Shown: positions 1 through 62,588, counted from the first letter of the stretch. The stretch: 64,000 nucleotides of DNA from Myxococcales bacterium (GCA_020430775.1 JAGQJE010000038.1:280-64279), one strand, 5' to 3'. The notes: generated by a model from the letters alone, not told the origin. A program made the numbers and translations.

Positions 1-49
1 GGGCACGGGCACGGCCTCGGGCACGGACACGGGCTCGGACTCGGCCTCG
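1..49 (+). repeat. G-rich hexanucleotide-period tract, truncated by the window edge
   Basis: Read directly: gggcac gggcac ggcctc gggcac ggacac gggctc ggactc ggcctc. Same unit family as 169-264. Confidence 0.8.
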
Positions 50-170
50 ATTCGTGGGAAGTAACTCCTCAGGCCGGCTACGGCCCACTACATGATGTGG
101 TCGACGACGGTCGGTGGCCACGAGATGTTGTGGCGCCTGCCGTCGACATCGAGTTGCTTCCCACGAATCG
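48..170. repeat. 14-bp terminal inverted repeats enclosing a 95-bp lower-GC core, nested inside the hexamer tract
   Basis: 48-61 CGATTCGTGGGAAG is the exact reverse complement of 157-170 CTTCCCACGAATCG. Both outer flanks carry the same CGGCCTCGG..GGGCTCGGACTCGGCCTCG repeat. Confidence 0.75.
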
Positions 171-264
171 GCCTCGGTCACGGGCTCGGACTCGGCCTCG
201 GTCACGGGCTCGGACTCGGCCTCGGTGCGGGATTCGGTTCGGGGTGTTCGGTGGGCGGGGAGGG
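169..264 (+). repeat. Hexamer-period G-rich tract with an exact 24-bp tandem duplication
   Basis: cggcctcggtcacgggctcggact occurs at 169-192 and again at 193-216. It then degenerates to ...gcgggattcggttcggggtgttcggtgggcggggaggg. Confidence 0.85.
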
Positions 265-27910: not shown

Positions 27911-29248
27911 TCAGCCGTCTTGGGGCGCGGCGCGGTTGCGCGTCTGCACGGCGAGGAGCTGTGCGGCCGCCGTCGCGGTGGCCACGGCGCCGACCGCGCT
28001 CGCGATGAGCGTGGCGGTCAGCGGATCGGGCAGCGCCACGCCCACGCCGGTCGCGGGCCACAGCCGCTCGGCTACGGAGAGGGCTACGTCCACCGCGAAG
28101 ACTCCGAGCAAGCCGTACGCCCACATGTGCGCGCCCGCGCGGGTGCGCGAGTCCATGAAGGCGAGCAGGGCGAGGATCGGCGCGAACAGGAAGGCGATGT
28201 GTACCAGCGGCGGCGCCCACGATTGCCAAGCGGCGCCGAGGCCGGCGAGCGCGTGCAGTTCGTCGGTCACCGCGAACCAGCCCGCGAAGAGCAGGATGCC
28301 CGCGAGGACGACCCAGCGGGCCAGCCGGGACGCTCGGTAGTACGACCGAAACAGTAGCCCGGCGCTCAAGACGACGACGCCGACGGTGAGGAGCGCGAAC
28401 GCACCGTCCAGGCCGATGCGCAGGTGCGCGAGGTTGCCGAGCACGAGCTCGACCACGCCGAGCACGGCGAGCGCCCAGGCGCGACGCGCGTAGGTCAAGC
28501 GGGCGCCGCTCGCCAGCCCGAAGCCCACGATGAGCGCGGACACGCCCGCCGTCACCCATGTGAGCGGCGACGACGCGCCCCCTAGCGCGAGCGCGAGCAC
28601 GAGCCCGGCGAGGCCGGACGCGGCGCACACGGGCCCAATCGTCCGCCGGCCGGGGCAGCGCGGCATGAGGTCGGCCTCGAGGATCTCCGAGGCGAGGACG
28701 GGGGGCGACACCGGTGGGGACGAGCCGGGCTGCACCGGTGGGGACGAGCCGGGCTCGCGCGGGGTGGCCTCCGGGGGCGCGGACGAGCCTCGCGGGGCCG
28801 GGCGCGACCCTCGCTCCGCCGCGAGGGCGTCGCCTGTCACCGCTGCGTCCGGGGGTGTGGGTGGACGCAGCGGCAGGATCTCGGCCTCCGCCCGTGATCG
28901 CAGCGCGTGTGCCTGGCTCTGTTCGGCCGGTGCGTCCGGGTGCAGCAAGGCGATCGCCCCGCTCGCATGCGCCCGGTGAGCGCTCACCTCGTGCGCGGGC
29001 GCGATGCGGCGCACGTTCTGGACGTCACGCGCCGCGTAAGGCGGCGCCCCGCCCGCGGCGGGGTCTCCGAGAGGGCGCGCGGGGCTCGCAGGGGCTGCCT
29101 CGGCGGCTCGCGGGCGCGGAAAAGCCGACTCGCTCGCCCACGTACCCGTCGGCACTGGCGTCGAGTCGCCTCGCGTCGAGGTGCCGCAGTCGGGGCACTC
29201 GGTGGCGTCGGCCTGGACCGACGATCCGCAATGGGCACAGGTCGTCAT
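27911..29248 (-). CDS. Hypothetical membrane protein: N-terminal zinc-ribbon, Pro-rich linker, ~8 TM segments
   Basis: MTTCAHCGSSVQADATECPDCG (CxxC...CxxC), a long P/A/S-rich region, then a hydrophobic C-terminal half. Start set to ATG 29248. Confidence 0.6.
   Translation of the reverse strand: MTTCAHCGSSVQADATECPDCGTSTRGDSTPVPTGTWASESAFPRPRAAEAAPASPARPLGDPAAGGAPPYAARDVQNVRRIAPAHEVSAHRAHASGAIALLHPDAPAEQSQAHALRSRAEAEILPLRPPTPPDAAVTGDALAAERGSRPAPRGSSAPPEATPREPGSSPPVQPGSSPPVSPPVLASEILEADLMPRCPGRRTIGPVCAASGLAGLVLALALGGASSPLTWVTAGVSALIVGFGLASGARLTYARRAWALAVLGVVELVLGNLAHLRIGLDGAFALLTVGVVVLSAGLLFRSYYRASRLARWVVLAGILLFAGWFAVTDELHALAGLGAAWQSWAPPLVHIAFLFAPILALLAFMDSRTRAGAHMWAYGLLGVFAVDVALSVAERLWPATGVGVALPDPLTATLIASAVGAVATATAAAQLLAVQTRNRAAPQDG
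28709..28756. repeat. 24-bp tandem duplication inside the Pro-rich linker
   Basis: caccggtggggacgagccgggct(g/c) appears twice, encoding GSSPPVQPGSSPPV on the minus strand. Confidence 0.85.
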
Positions 29249-30786: not shown

Positions 30787-31560
30787 ATGTTCGCGTTCTC
30801 CGTCACCCACCGCAGGCCCTCCGTTCGGCCCCTCGCGTCCGTCGCCGCGGCCTGCGCCATCGTCTTGGCGAGCCTCGCGCTCGGCGCGGCCGCCGCGCGC
30901 GCGCAGGGCGAGCCCTCGAGCGCGCCCGCGCCCTCGAGCCGCCTCGACGCGCGCGGCGTGGCTGCGCTGGTGCAGTCGTTCTACGACCAGATGCGCACCA
31001 TCGAGGCGCACTTCGAGCAGACCCGCTTCACGAAGCTCTACGACCGCACCGACCGGGCGCACGGCACGGTGGTCTTCAAGAAGCCCGGCCGCATGCGCTG
31101 GGACTACGACGCGCCGAACGGGCAGATCTTCGTCAGCGACGGTCAGACGCTGCGCATCTACCAGCCGCCGGAGGAGGGCGAGGCGCACGGCCAGGTCATC
31201 GAGCGCTCGGTCGACGCCGCGCAGCTCCCTGAGGCGCTCTCGTTTCTCACGGGGACGGGCCGGCTCGCCCGGGACTTCGAGATGCGCCTGCTCGAGCCAC
31301 CGGAGGGCAGCCCGGCGGACCTGTACGTCCTCGAGCTGCGGCCGCGCACCCCGAGCCCGCGCTACGACCGGGTGCTCTTCTTCGTGCGGGTCGTGCACGC
31401 CGGCGGCCGAGCGGCGGGCGTCATCGAGCGCGTCGTCATCCTCGACGCGGTCGGCAACCGCAACCAGTTCGACTTCAGCAAGCTGCGCTTCAACCGCGCC
31501 GTGCCGGACTCACGGTTCACGTTGAAGGTGCCGAAGGGGACCCGTCGCATCCGGAAGTGA
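30787..31560 (+). CDS. lolA: Outer-membrane lipoprotein carrier protein LolA-like
   Basis: Signal peptide ending AAAARA. Then FEQTRFTKLYDRTDRAHGTVVFKKPGRMRWDYDAPNGQIFVSDGQTLRIYQP. Confidence 0.7.
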   Translation: MFAFSVTHRRPSVRPLASVAAACAIVLASLALGAAAARAQGEPSSAPAPSSRLDARGVAALVQSFYDQMRTIEAHFEQTRFTKLYDRTDRAHGTVVFKKPGRMRWDYDAPNGQIFVSDGQTLRIYQPPEEGEAHGQVIERSVDAAQLPEALSFLTGTGRLARDFEMRLLEPPEGSPADLYVLELRPRTPSPRYDRVLFFVRVVHAGGRAAGVIERVVILDAVGNRNQFDFSKLRFNRAVPDSRFTLKVPKGTRRIRK

Positions 31561-33067
31561 CGCCGAGCCATCGCTCGACGCGGGGTCCCACCTCGGACCA
31601 GCGGTGGCGGGTGGCGCGCGCGTGACCGCGCTCGGCTAGGCGCCGGGCGAGCGCGGGGGTGTCCGCGAGTCGTGTGAGCGCTGCGGCGAGGGCGCCGGCG
31701 TCGTCCGGCGGGACGAGCAGGGCGGCGTCCTCTGCGCCGGTGAGCTCCGGGACGCCGCCTACGCGGGACGCGACGACCGGCAGCCCGGCGTACATCGCCT
31801 CGAGGAGCGCGACGGGCGCCCCCTCGGTGCGGCCGTTCGAGAGGCGGCGCGACGGCAGCACGAACGCGTCGGCGTCCGCGAGCAGCGCGGCCTTGTCGCG
31901 ACCGCGCACCGCTCCGACGAAGCGCACGGGAGCCCCGAGGCGCGCCGCGCGGCGTTCGAGCCGGTCGCGCTCGGGCCCGTCCCCGGCGACCACCAGCGTG
32001 ACGCGGCCCGCGGTCTTCGCGACCGCTTCGATCGCCACGTCGACGCCTTTGACAGGCACGAGCCGGCCGAGGGTGACGGCGCGCAGGGGACCGCTGGTCG
32101 ACGTGCGGCCCGGTCGTGCGGGTGGGCGCTCGAGGCCGAGCGCCGCGGGCTCGAAACCCATCGGCTGCACCTCACAGGGGGGCAGCGTGACGTGCACGCG
32201 CGCGGCGAGCTCCTCGACCATCGCGCGATGCTCAGCCGTCACGAAGCACAGCCGCGAGGTGCCACGGGCGATGCGCCGGAGGATCGCGCCGCGAGCAGGC
32301 AGGCGAGCCAGCAGGTGGACGTCCGCCGAGTGGAAGACCGCGAGGTGTGGGATCGCCCCCGCGCCTCGTGCGCGCGGGAGGCCGGCCGCGACCCACGCGC
32401 AGGGGAGCGCCCAGTGCGAGATGACCGCGTCCCAACGCCGCGACGCGCGCCACGCCGCCGCATAGAGCGCCGGCGGAAAGGTCAGCGCGCCGGGCCACGC
32501 CAGCGGATCGGAGGCGAGGTTCTCCGGTGCCCCGGCCCCGTAAAACGTCCGCTCGAGCGCCCGCGGCCACGCATACGCCACCCACCGCAGCGCGATGGGG
32601 TTGACGCCCTCGCTGCCGCTCGGGGAGGGGGGCACGCGCCCCCCTCCCAAACTCGACTTCGCCGCGCGATAGAATCGCGGCGAAGCCGACTTTGGCACCC
32701 ACCCCCGCGAGGGTCGTCGCCGTGGCGGCGCCTCCCGCATCGGCCCGCAGGAGGGTGGTCGTACGAGGTTGGTTGCACTCTTGCGGTAGCAAGACTGAAC
32801 CCAACCTCGGTGTGCCGTGGGTAGTTCGACGGGGTGACCCGCACCCGTGCCCGTGCCCGAACCCGTGCCCGTGCCCGAACCCGAACCCGAACCCGCGCCC
32901 GTGCCCGAACCCGAACCCGTGCCCGTGCCCGCGTCCCGTGGCTCCGGGGCGAGCACTTCGACCGTGTGACCGCGCGCCGCGAGCGCGCGCGCCATGCCCT
33001 CGACGAACGCCCCCGCGACGTCTCCCTCGAAGCGTGGGAAGCCCGTCGTCAGGATGCCGATGCGCAT
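31517..33067 (-). CDS. GT-B glycosyltransferase (family 4) carrying a ~113-aa in-frame insertion after residue ~44
   Basis: N-terminus MRIGILTTGFPRFEGDVAGAFVEGMARALAARGHTVEVLAPEP and C-terminus TEGAPVALLEAMYAGLPVVASRVGG are GT4-like. Residues ~45-157 are (GT/GS/GA)n plus an Arg/Pro/Ser-rich stretch. Confidence 0.7.
   Translation of the reverse strand: MRIGILTTGFPRFEGDVAGAFVEGMARALAARGHTVEVLAPEPRDAGTGTGSGSGTGAGSGSGSGTGTGSGTGTGAGHPVELPTAHRGWVQSCYRKSATNLVRPPSCGPMREAPPRRRPSRGWVPKSASPRFYRAAKSSLGGGRVPPSPSGSEGVNPIALRWVAYAWPRALERTFYGAGAPENLASDPLAWPGALTFPPALYAAAWRASRRWDAVISHWALPCAWVAAGLPRARGAGAIPHLAVFHSADVHLLARLPARGAILRRIARGTSRLCFVTAEHRAMVEELAARVHVTLPPCEVQPMGFEPAALGLERPPARPGRTSTSGPLRAVTLGRLVPVKGVDVAIEAVAKTAGRVTLVVAGDGPERDRLERRAARLGAPVRFVGAVRGRDKAALLADADAFVLPSRRLSNGRTEGAPVALLEAMYAGLPVVASRVGGVPELTGAEDAALLVPPDDAGALAAALTRLADTPALARRLAERGHARATRHRWSEVGPRVERWLGVTSGCDGSPSAPST
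32597..32837. other. Lower-GC, hairpin-dense segment inserted in the GT4 coding region
   Basis: Three strong hairpins: 32623-32632/32639-32648 (GGGAGGGGGG/CCCCCCTCCC), 32647-32666/32676-32695 (18 of 20 bp, loop cgatagaat), and 32767-32784/32789-32806 (15 of 18 bp, loop GGTA). Confidence 0.7.
32838..32940 (-). repeat. 16 consecutive CCCNNN hexamers (GGGNNN on the minus/coding strand)
   Basis: cccgca cccgtg cccgtg cccgaa cccgtg cccgtg cccgaa cccgaa cccgaa cccgcg cccgtg cccgaa cccgaa cccgtg cccgtg cccgcg. Encodes GTGTGSGSGTGAGSGSGSGTGTGSGTGTGAG. Confidence 0.9.
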
Positions 33068-51881: not shown

Positions 51882-52484
51882 TTGTCCAAATCATCCGCAA
51901 GCGCCGCGAGCGCGATCGAGCCGACCGCGCTGCGCCGAGCGCGCAAGTACGAGCTCATCTACATCCTTCGCCCGAACGTCGACACCGAGGGCGCCGAGAA
52001 GGTCGCGGAGCGCATCCGTGAGGTGGTCGAGCGCCTCGAAGGCAAGCTCACGAAGGTCGACAACTGGGGCAAGCGCCGCCTCGCCTACCCCATCCGGAAG
52101 TTCACCCGCGGCATCTTCGTGTACGTCGAGGTCGCCGGGTATGGCGACCTCGTGGCCGAGCTCGACCGCAACCTCGGTCTGCTCGAGTCGGTCATCCGCC
52201 ACCAGACCGTCCTCACCGATCCGTCCGTCGACATCGAGTCCATCGTGGTCGACCCGGACGAGGTCACGTTCCTGCCGGTCGAGCAGGGCGAAGAAGAGCC
52301 CGACGAGGACCGCGCGGTCCGTCTCGGCCTCGTCGACGCGCGGCCGGAGCGTTCGCGGGCCGACGGCGGCGACGACGACGGCGGCGACGATGACGACGAC
52401 GTCGGCGACGACGAGGACGATGACGACGGCGACGACCGGGGCCGGTCGAGGCGGCCTGGCCGCTCGCGTGAGGAAGAGGAGTAG
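51882..52484 (+). CDS. rpsF: 30S ribosomal protein S6 with long poly-acidic C-terminal extension
   Basis: YELIYILRPNVDTEGAEKVAERI...VDNWGKRRLAYPIRK. TTG 51882 preceded by AGGAGGA. Tail DGGDDDGGDDDDDVGDDEDDDDGDD. Confidence 0.8.
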   Translation: MSKSSASAASAIEPTALRRARKYELIYILRPNVDTEGAEKVAERIREVVERLEGKLTKVDNWGKRRLAYPIRKFTRGIFVYVEVAGYGDLVAELDRNLGLLESVIRHQTVLTDPSVDIESIVVDPDEVTFLPVEQGEEEPDEDRAVRLGLVDARPERSRADGGDDDGGDDDDDVGDDEDDDDGDDRGRSRRPGRSREEEE

Positions 52485-59968: not shown

Positions 59969-61969
<2,001 letters not shown>

Positions 61970-61983
61970 GCCGGCGCGCCGCC

Positions 61984-62147
61984 GGGAGCAGGCGCGGGAG
62001 TCGGGATCGGGCACGGGATCGGGGCCGGGATCGGGCATCGGGATCGGGATCGGGCATCGGGATCGGGGCCGGGAGCGGGGTCGGGGTCGGGAGCGGGTGC
62101 GGGTGCGGGGGTACTCTCGGCGGGGGGGCGCGGGCGGGACGGCGGGC
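61984..62147 (+). repeat. G-tract array: about 19 GGG(G) runs with 3-nt spacers, then further G-runs
   Basis: gggagtcgggatcgggcacgggatcggggccgggatcgggcatcgggatcgggatcgggcatcgggatcggggccgggagcggggtcggggtcgggagcgggtgcgggtgcggggg. Starts 15 nt after the tkt stop. Confidence 0.9.
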
Positions 62148-62304
62148 TCTATCCACAGAACTCGCACAGTATCACACAGGATATTTTCGCGATTTCGTGT
62201 GATGTTACAGTAGCTTGTAGCATGTATCCACAGCCTGCACACAGGTCGTGCCCATGCTGTGCACGGTCGCTGCGCACGAAGCCACGGGCCGGCGCGATTT
62301 CGGC

Positions 62305-62333
62305 TTGCACGACGTATTGAAAGTCATTATCAA
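62305..62333 (+). promoter_or_regulatory. Candidate feoA promoter placing the transcription start at or next to the ATG (leaderless-type)
   Basis: TTGCAC (62305-10), 17-nt spacer, TATCAA (62328-33), then 6 nt to ATG 62340. No Shine-Dalgarno sequence upstream. Confidence 0.35.
62313..62331. promoter_or_regulatory. Fur-box-like site overlapping the candidate feoA promoter
   Basis: CGTATTGAAAGTCATTATC matches the E. coli Fur consensus GATAATGATAATCATTATC at 14 of 19 positions. The last 8 positions are perfect. Confidence 0.4.
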
Positions 62334-62339
62334 GTCGCC

Positions 62340-62588
62340 ATGGCGCTGCCCGATCCGTGTCGAGGCCTCGACCGCGTGCCCATCGGCTCGCGGGCCATCG
62401 TCAGCGAGGTCCGCTGCGAGCGGTCGACGGCGCGCCGCTTGATGGAGCTGGGCCTGCTGCCGGGCACCGCCGTGCGGGTGGTGCGGGTCGCGCCGATGGG
62501 CTGCCCCATCGAGCTGCGGGTGCGTGACTTCTCGCTCTCGATTCGTCGCGCAGAGGCGGCTCGGGTGACCGTCGACCAGGTAGGCTGA
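62340..62588 (+). CDS. feoA: Ferrous iron transport protein A (FeoA)
   Basis: 82 aa SH3-like FeoA pattern: GSRAIVSEV......RRLMELGLLPGTAVRVVRVAPMGCPIELRVRDFSLSIRRAEAARVTV. Confidence 0.85.
   Translation: MALPDPCRGLDRVPIGSRAIVSEVRCERSTARRLMELGLLPGTAVRVVRVAPMGCPIELRVRDFSLSIRRAEAARVTVDQVG

Follow-up and report, generated by a model that had tools for sequence, protein, structure and literature searches.

Between the transketolase gene tkt and the genes feoAB, a Myxococcales genome carries a dense array of G-runs, which raises the questions what this array is, how it arose and whether it acts on its neighbours. The stretch of DNA analysed here (the window) comprises 64,000 nt with a GC content of 71.4 %. 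Its Tkt protein is 100 % identical to MCA9528851.1, annotated as 'MAG: Myxococcales bacterium'. The next-best Tkt proteins, several of them labelled Polyangiales, show only 73–69 % identity, so the lineage is without a close sequenced relative. The gene names given in the original prediction (tkt, feoA, feoB, kup, GT4 and a GT2 glycosyltransferase) were all confirmed by Pfam. The features discussed are collected in Table 1.

Table 1 Position of the G-rich arrays, their structured modules and the adjacent genes in the window
Feature	Position	Strand	Remarks
Hexamer array upstream of kup, left half (3' part)	1..49	+	Window begins inside the array
123-nt imperfect palindrome with 20-nt terminal inverted repeats	48..170	.	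Lies within the array upstream of kup
Right half of the kup-upstream array	168..264	+	2.5 perfect 24-nt higher-order units, then degenerate G-runs
GT4 glycosyltransferase ORF, 516 aa, with insertion	31517..33067	-	Pfam; in-frame
segA, three-hairpin module directly 3' of the GT4 array	32606..32837	-	RNA fold z = −5.5; GC 70 %
GT4 array, 16–17 units (17 C-runs)	32838..32940	-	G-rich on the GT4 sense strand
tkt (transketolase), 666 aa in public assemblies	59969..61969	+	Pfam Transketolase_N, Transket_pyr, Transketolase_C_1
tkt array, G-rich minisatellite	61983..62147	+	G-rich strand is the tkt sense strand
Low-GC (53 %) spacer	62148..62304	+	Not significantly structured
Putative feoA-proximal promoter region, TTGCAC...TGAAAGTCATTATCAAG	62305..62336	+	Fur-box-like; conserved upstream of feoA in L091
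feoA	62340..62588	+	Pfam FeoA
feoB	from about 62600, runs off the window	+	Pfam FeoB_N, Gate

The G-rich array between tkt and feoA

Directly downstream of tkt lies a non-random and non-coding array on the tkt sense strand. The stop codon of tkt (TGA, 61967–61969) and the first CGGG at 61983 place its beginning 14 nt past the stop. A degenerate lead-in (61983–61994) is followed by a core of 19 consecutive CGGGNN(N) units (61995–62111). This core is composed of 16 hexamers (six CGGGAT, two each of CGGGGC, CGGGAG, CGGGGT and CGGGTG, one CGGGCA and one CGGGGG) and three heptamers (two CGGGCAT and one CGGGAGT). After a 9-nt break, TACTCTCGG, four irregular G-runs follow at 62121–62147. The array contains 24 runs of three or more G in total: 19 in 61996–62111 and four in 62122–62146 were found by a regex scan, and one further run at 61984–61986 was read off the sequence. 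G makes up 96 of the 164 nt. With three 7-nt units interrupting every reading frame, the array is non-coding.

The four-unit pattern GGGNNNGGGNNNGGGNNNGGG (three times GGGNNN plus GGG) has 22 matches in the window versus 0.03 expected from dinucleotide-preserving shuffles. A looser pattern, (CGGNNN)x4+CGG, has 28 matches versus 0.00 expected; these are confined to the kup, GT4 and tkt loci, and the tkt neighbourhoods of 82 other genomes, 1.0 Mb in all, gave 0 matches. Arrays of this pattern, each of 16–24 units, occur at three loci in 64 kb and at none in a further 6 kb. Within the part of the genome covered, the repeat class is present at three or more places per 64 kb. Unit parse, G-run scan and shuffle enrichment therefore bear out the original prediction of a dense G3N3 array right after tkt, and its recurrence at the named further tracts is likewise supported.

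No Rfam family matched the array when the whole window was scanned at gathering thresholds, and relaxed E-values gave only chance-level matches in the two regions searched, the kup-array region of contig L093 and the GT4 insertion in contig L107. A scan for tRNA and tmRNA was negative. Neither an intrinsic terminator (GC-rich hairpin plus U tract) nor a sigma-70-like promoter was found in 61900–62400; canonical terminators are not enriched in this genome (6 found versus 5.4 expected in 20 kb).

Within the array, direct repeats spaced by 12, 13 and 19 nt are nested, and the TRF period is 19 nt (GGGATC-GGGATC-GGGCATC). Perfect or near-perfect higher-order units also exist in the sister arrays, of 24 nt at kup and of 18–30 nt at GT4. 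These nested duplications and higher-order units, together with a kup variant differing by one unit (contig L095), point to slippage or unequal exchange at work, and the tkt array itself presumably originated by slippage.

The array also satisfies the textbook rule for G-quadruplexes (G4s) many times over, as had been predicted, with 19 plus 4 runs of at least three G separated by loops of 1–7 nt and a mean G4Hunter score of 1.55. When G-quadruplex energies are included, the RNAfold prediction for the 3' region of tkt is a series of five tandem three-layer G4s, at −120 kcal/mol versus −79 kcal/mol without G4s. On the strength of this energy model the array may form G4s in vivo. The G-rich strand is the sense strand at all three loci, that is at tkt (+), at the membrane-protein gene and kup (+) and at GT4 (−), a rule which rests on n = 3 and would arise by chance with a probability of about 0.25. 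The two intergenic arrays are each flanked by co-directional genes, and they begin 14 nt (tkt) and 28 nt (kup) past the respective stop codon.

The array occupies part of a tkt–feoA spacer of 370 nt. The remaining flank (62148–62339) has 53 % GC and a fold z of −1.4, and no inverted-repeat arms of 10 nt or more were detected in it. Five CACAG motifs and a 7-nt inverted repeat, ATCACAC..GTGTGAT, are located in its low-GC part. By direct sequence comparison, only the last ~35 nt before feoA resemble the region upstream of feoA in the related locus L091 (TTGCAC...TGAATTTCATTATCAAT). The corresponding sequence in the window, TTGCAC...TGAAAGTCATTATCAAG, is what we take to be a Fur box. Judged from this similarity, the low-GC stretch, at least at its 3' end, appears to be the feoA promoter region and not part of a repeat element.

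In the same spacer two 8/9 matches to the DnaA box TTATCCACA are found at 62149–62157 and 62224–62232, co-oriented and 75 nt apart, and the array contains six GATC sites. An origin of replication suggested by these motifs was dropped, since the count of DnaA-box-like motifs is not significant: the 64 kb hold 3 near-matches to the DnaA box, 2 of them in the spacer, versus 1.1 expected, and 13 of 100 shuffles reach 3. Furthermore, the GC skew has no turning point.

The two nearest syntenic loci, L091 (Tkt 73 %) and L092 (Tkt 70 %), keep the order pntAB-tkt...feoAB. Their tkt–feoA gaps are filled by an antitoxin/ParE pair and ahpC in L091 and by a 510-aa gene and ahpC in L092, and neither contains an array; in L092 a low-complexity lipoprotein gene adjoins tkt. 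No remnant of these intervening genes was found in the window spacer by tblastn and blastn. Since the relatives have no array and the spacer no trace of their genes, the tkt array is a lineage-specific novelty in a rearranged spacer.

Of the same-strain contigs, nine extend into the array, seven of them across its full length and two with their ends inside, and all nine are identical. Three more contigs start inside, and five of the 14 contigs touching the array break within it, which could hide length heterogeneity. Arrays of this class fragment short-read assemblies through a drop in coverage, unresolved heterogeneity or both. The contigs breaking in arrays are L083, L084 and L088 with their starts, L243 and L244 with their ends, and many contigs of the kup and GT4 loci.

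Sister arrays at kup and GT4 and the wider occurrence of the repeat class

The complete contigs of the kup locus show the order 116-aa gene, 28 nt, array, 123-nt palindrome, array and kup. The 116-aa gene codes for a membrane protein, has 59.5 % GC and is co-directional with the array, as seen in L093. The palindrome has 62 % GC and a DNA fold z of −6.3. Its copy number varies: one strain (L099) has two copies in tandem, the upstream one (L099 1–97) being 97 % identical over the 97 nt which the contig retains, and one strain (L102) has none, having lost the palindrome in a 175-nt deletion. In L095 the array is shorter by one 24-nt unit. Positions 1–32 of this public contig are an Illumina adapter, CACTCTTTCCCTACACGACGCTCTTCCGATCT, to which array sequence is joined, and the first ~65 nt of the contig are therefore unreliable. 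In other strains a 23S-rRNA-IVP gene (PF05635, 99 aa) replaces the membrane-protein gene and a hairpin abuts a longer array. The IVP gene lies between array pieces (L102 79–520; L094, L096 and L098 1–54), and the arms of the adjacent hairpin are 21 nt long (GGGGTTGGTTCGTTCGGGTCA / TGACCCGGACGAACCAACCCC). The GGTTGG/CCAACC stem motif of this hairpin recurs in the first hairpin of segA at the GT4 locus. The palindrome is possibly a MITE; no copies elsewhere were found in the window, in the fetched loci or by BLAST against plasmids, and a target duplication would be indistinguishable from the array period.

At the GT4 locus the array is part of a gene. It reads in frame as (Gly-Thr/Ser/Ala)n and forms, together with segA, an in-frame insertion of 324 nt or 108 codons (residues 47–154), which is placed between beta2 (VEVLAPEP) and the next strand (ALRWVAY). 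The insertion was absent from all 120 of the homologues compared (387–464 aa). AlphaFold predicts a confident GT-B fold outside the insertion (pTM 0.73), and residues 47–154 as disordered (pLDDT < 50). Gene callers and public annotations give a GT4 protein of 372 aa which starts inside the insertion and does not include the conserved N-terminal strand-helix-strand.

A longer GT4 haplotype, present in other samples and read from both sides (L107 4792–5609; L236 1–453), has the composition N-terminus, array1, segA1, 11 nt, segA', 38 nt, array2, segA2 and C-terminus. It adds 561 nt or 187 codons in frame, the insertion thus measuring 885 versus 324 nt, and would code for a protein of 703 aa. The haplotype is free of stops as far as L107 reads, 27 nt into segA2; beyond the end of L107, segA2 matches the open frame of the window except for one T-to-G change, which creates no stop. 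That the frame is open over the full length therefore depends on joining L107 and L236, which overlap only in repeats. The GT4 array is hexameric and the frame is kept in both haplotypes. segA' is 87 % identical to segA, and the differences include compensatory paired changes which keep the hairpins while the peptides differ; the constraint on segA thus concerns nucleic-acid structure. SNP mosaics among the GT4 contigs indicate exchange between copies. Further copies of segA were found neither in the window or the fetched loci nor in plasmids (BLAST), and its 26-nt core had 0 matches in JGI metagenomes. Six-frame translations of segA and of the palindrome had no match among called proteins, in a database which also lacks the window's own GT4.

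The hexamer class is not unique to this genome, because JGI metagenomes hold many such arrays: a scan for eight in-register CGGGNN units gave at least 120 stretches. Most of the matches listed are homogeneous hexanucleotide microsatellites. Among those listed in contigs of at least 60 % GC, 33 arrays lie in ORFs, 30 are intergenic and 39 are at contig ends, as assigned by a crude GC3-based gene finder adequate for a rough split only. In 25 of the 33 ORF arrays listed, the C-rich strand is the sense strand and yields (Pro-X)n linkers. What is unusual in the present genome is the length, the loop heterogeneity, the non-coding mix of hexamers and heptamers and the density per kb.

Unrelated long arrays of up to 71 units were seen in the JGI contigs L115, L170, L192, L211 and L216 (37–68 % GC), with an 18-nt higher-order unit of CGGGTC, CGGGTA and CGGGGA. 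Two other repeats of the window are a perfect twofold tandem duplication of 24 nt at 28709–28755, CACCGGTGGGGACGAGCCGGGCTG, and a (CGA)25 tract with a 24-nt higher-order period at 52361–52436. The latter lies in a region called ribosomal protein S6 in L081 and presumably encodes an acidic, Asp-rich C-terminal tail.

Origin and possible role of the tkt array

In our judgement the tkt array is probably a young, lineage-specific, slippage-born and G4-prone minisatellite, with a likely role as structural barrier or 3' end element before feoAB. A CGGGNN/CGGGNNN minisatellite would have expanded through slippage during replication and through unequal exchange, involving single units as well as blocks of 12–19 nt; it would lie in the gap between tkt and the Fur-box-like feoAB promoter, a position taken by other genes in related genomes. 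With its G-rich strand as the non-template strand and its beginning so close to the stop codon, the array would endow the tkt transcript with up to five tandem RNA G4s, and the displaced DNA could adopt a G4/R-loop. This would most likely create a structural barrier damping read-through from the constitutive tkt into the iron-regulated feoAB; in addition, the array may shield the 3' end of the tkt mRNA. In these ways it would affect transcription or mRNA stability. G-rich RNA is a poor substrate of Rho, and therefore a role in termination would need a different mechanism. In vitro, a G-rich non-template strand has been described to influence transcription in an orientation-dependent manner via R-loops and G4s, and the effects of such motifs go both ways, to blockage as well as to stimulation (PMC5499740, PMC7341879). 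Since the array is kept in no relative, a neutral expansion fits as well as a selected function.

It is possible, if rather doubtful, that the array is functionless, a neutral or mildly deleterious slippage repeat which expanded in a dispensable spacer after gene loss and whose G4 potential is incidental. Its absence from the relatives would fit, as would the missing terminator and promoter signals in 61900–62400, the frequency of homogeneous (CGGGNN)n microsatellites in metagenomes and the failure to assign a function to analogous repeats (Rehm et al. 2015; PMC4692102). However, variation might be expected of a neutral repeat free to slip, and the tkt array is invariant in nine contigs although its sister arrays vary in the same sample set. 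The consistent sense orientation and the position just past stop codons furthermore suggest at least a selective filter.

The original prediction saw in the arrays and their flanks one family of composite elements instead of independent slippage events. Slippage and a composite-element origin are not mutually exclusive. Each tract was expected to abut a segment both lower in GC and rich in inverted repeats. Both properties hold at kup, where the palindrome combines 62 % GC with strong folding (z = −6.3). The GT4 flank (32606–32837) is rich in inverted repeats (z = −5.5) without being lower in GC (70 %), and the tkt–feoA flank is lower in GC without being rich in inverted repeats. As to a common family, the kup and GT4 arrays do enclose strain-variable structured modules, but the non-repeat flanks of the three arrays have no similarity to each other, to the rest of the window or to the fetched loci.

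We consider it improbable that the tkt array marks the footprint or an end of a small non-autonomous composite element, consisting of array plus structured segment, which inserts at various loci. The sister loci speak for such an element: at GT4, array and hairpin module form an insertion foreign to 120 homologues, some strains have a tandem array-segA-segA'-array-segA, and compensatory changes preserve the hairpins; at kup, the arrays flank the palindrome and in other strains the IVP gene cassette. Against it, no sequence is common to the three flanks, and homologous exchange between repeats accounts for the strain variants. No other copies of segA or the palindrome turned up in the window, the fetched loci, plasmids or called proteins, nor of the segA core in JGI metagenomes. 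At the tkt locus itself, neither terminal repeats nor a target duplication nor presence/absence variation were observed; as to the hallmarks of a MITE, array and flank have no inverted repeats and no other copies in the window or the fetched loci, and part of the flank seems to be the conserved feoA promoter region.

From the strain variants at kup and GT4 it follows that arrays of this class are recombining hot spots enclosing structured modules. In contrast to these two loci, the tkt locus consists of the array alone, which is invariant. At long odds, the hexamer arrays of this myxobacterial lineage could be recombination scaffolds or landing pads which flank and exchange small cassettes, the tkt array being an unoccupied member. 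The cassettes seen in this case would be the hairpin modules, the 23S-rRNA-IVP gene for a four-helix bundle and the small membrane-protein gene, and such an array-mediated system could persist in frame inside an active glycosyltransferase gene.

It is very unlikely that the array derives by decay from a low-complexity coding linker, (Gly-X)n or (Pro-X)n, of a former gene between tkt and feoA. Such linkers do exist: 33 of the 63 placeable (CGGGNN)n arrays among the metagenome matches listed are inside ORFs, the C-rich strand being the sense strand in 25 of them, the GT4 array translates as (Gly-Thr/Ser)n, and L092 has its low-complexity lipoprotein gene beside tkt. However, the three heptamers destroy the reading frame, the intervening genes of the relatives have no similarity to the spacer, and the perfect internal duplications indicate recent expansion and not decay.

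Still less probable is a VNTR acting as a contingency locus which tunes the expression of feoAB or tkt. The suggestion of a length-variable repeat holds for the kup array, with its change by a 24-nt unit and its 175-nt deletion, but not for the tkt array. Variation of the sister arrays between strains and a position about 190 nt upstream of the feoA promoter region would be compatible with phase variation at tkt. Against this, the repeat number is constant in the nine contigs reaching the array, including samples whose kup or GT4 loci differ, and the intergenic array lies upstream of, and outside, the conserved promoter-proximal segment, not between promoter elements. An artefact of assembly or sequencing, at which the five contigs breaking within the array and the kup-locus contig opening with an Illumina adapter might hint, can practically be dismissed, since the same array sequence, flanked on both sides by unique sequence, recurs in different samples and in assemblies of three origins (ENA k141 contigs, WANG18-1 scaffolds and Logan).

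Provided that folding takes place in vivo, the arrays would constitute a naturally occurring example, in a bacterium, of tandem G4 tracts of great length at the 3' ends of genes, in a genome without an excess of canonical terminators. They would then also offer a testable model of how G4/R-loops could insulate an iron-regulated operon from a neighbouring housekeeping gene. As the sister loci demonstrate, arrays can bring hundreds of nucleotides of structured DNA into a gene with the frame intact. The arrays also matter for the annotation of MAGs, the GT4 gene having been called in truncated form, and for assembly, as contigs are interrupted at them.

Comparison with known repeat systems

Among eukaryotic sequences the vertebrate telomeric repeat (TTAGGG)n is a G3N3 array. 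The tkt array shares its G3N3 periodicity and a 'beads-on-a-string' potential for tandem G4s, but it is chromosome-internal, has heterogeneous loops and stands in no telomerase context. REP/BIME, ERIC, Correia and MITE-like repeats resemble the kup palindrome with its 20-nt terminal inverted repeats and its presence/absence and copy-number variation. Unlike REP/BIME, ERIC and Correia elements, however, copies of this palindrome are found at one locus only, and the tkt array has no palindromic structure. Rickettsia palindromic elements (RPEs), reportedly described by Ogata and co-workers in 2000, are said to be selfish palindromic DNA inserted in frame in protein-coding genes. The GT4 locus alone is comparable to them: its hairpin-rich insertion is read through in frame, is part of a surface loop predicted to be disordered and has no counterpart in homologues. 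In contrast to RPEs, no dispersed copies of the GT4 module were found in the window, the fetched loci, called proteins or (for its core) JGI metagenomes, and the module is attached to a hexamer array and differs in its peptide between copies; for the tkt array the comparison is irrelevant.

The closest known class are the G4-forming GGGNATC repeats, with GGGAATC in Xanthomonas and GGGGA(C/T)T in Nostoc (Rehm et al. 2015; PMC4692102), which the tkt array resembles more than it does a mobile element. These repeats are enriched near stop codons between co-directional genes, fold into G4s in vitro and are mostly transcribed, and no function could be assigned to them (Rehm et al. 2015; PMC4692102). 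Like them, the tkt array is built of tandem short G3–4 units with loops of 3–4 nt; it is non-coding, lies between co-directional genes within 50 bp of a stop codon and is G-rich on the sense strand. In both cases several loci exist per genome, with strain variation at some of them. Two units of the tkt array (GGGCATC) fit GGGNATC exactly and six are GGGATC. Unlike the uniform heptamers, which prefer 4 units, the tkt array is mainly hexameric (16 of the 19 core units) with a variable loop and comprises 19–24 units. It also differs in belonging to the phylum Myxococcota, in a G4 folding predicted from an energy model only, and in having sister arrays which enclose hairpin modules, one of them in frame inside a gene. 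The tkt array is thus a hexamer-based variant of the G4-prone intergenic repeats of bacteria, found in a new phylum, and the strain-variable modules nested in its sister arrays are a more original observation than the tkt array itself.
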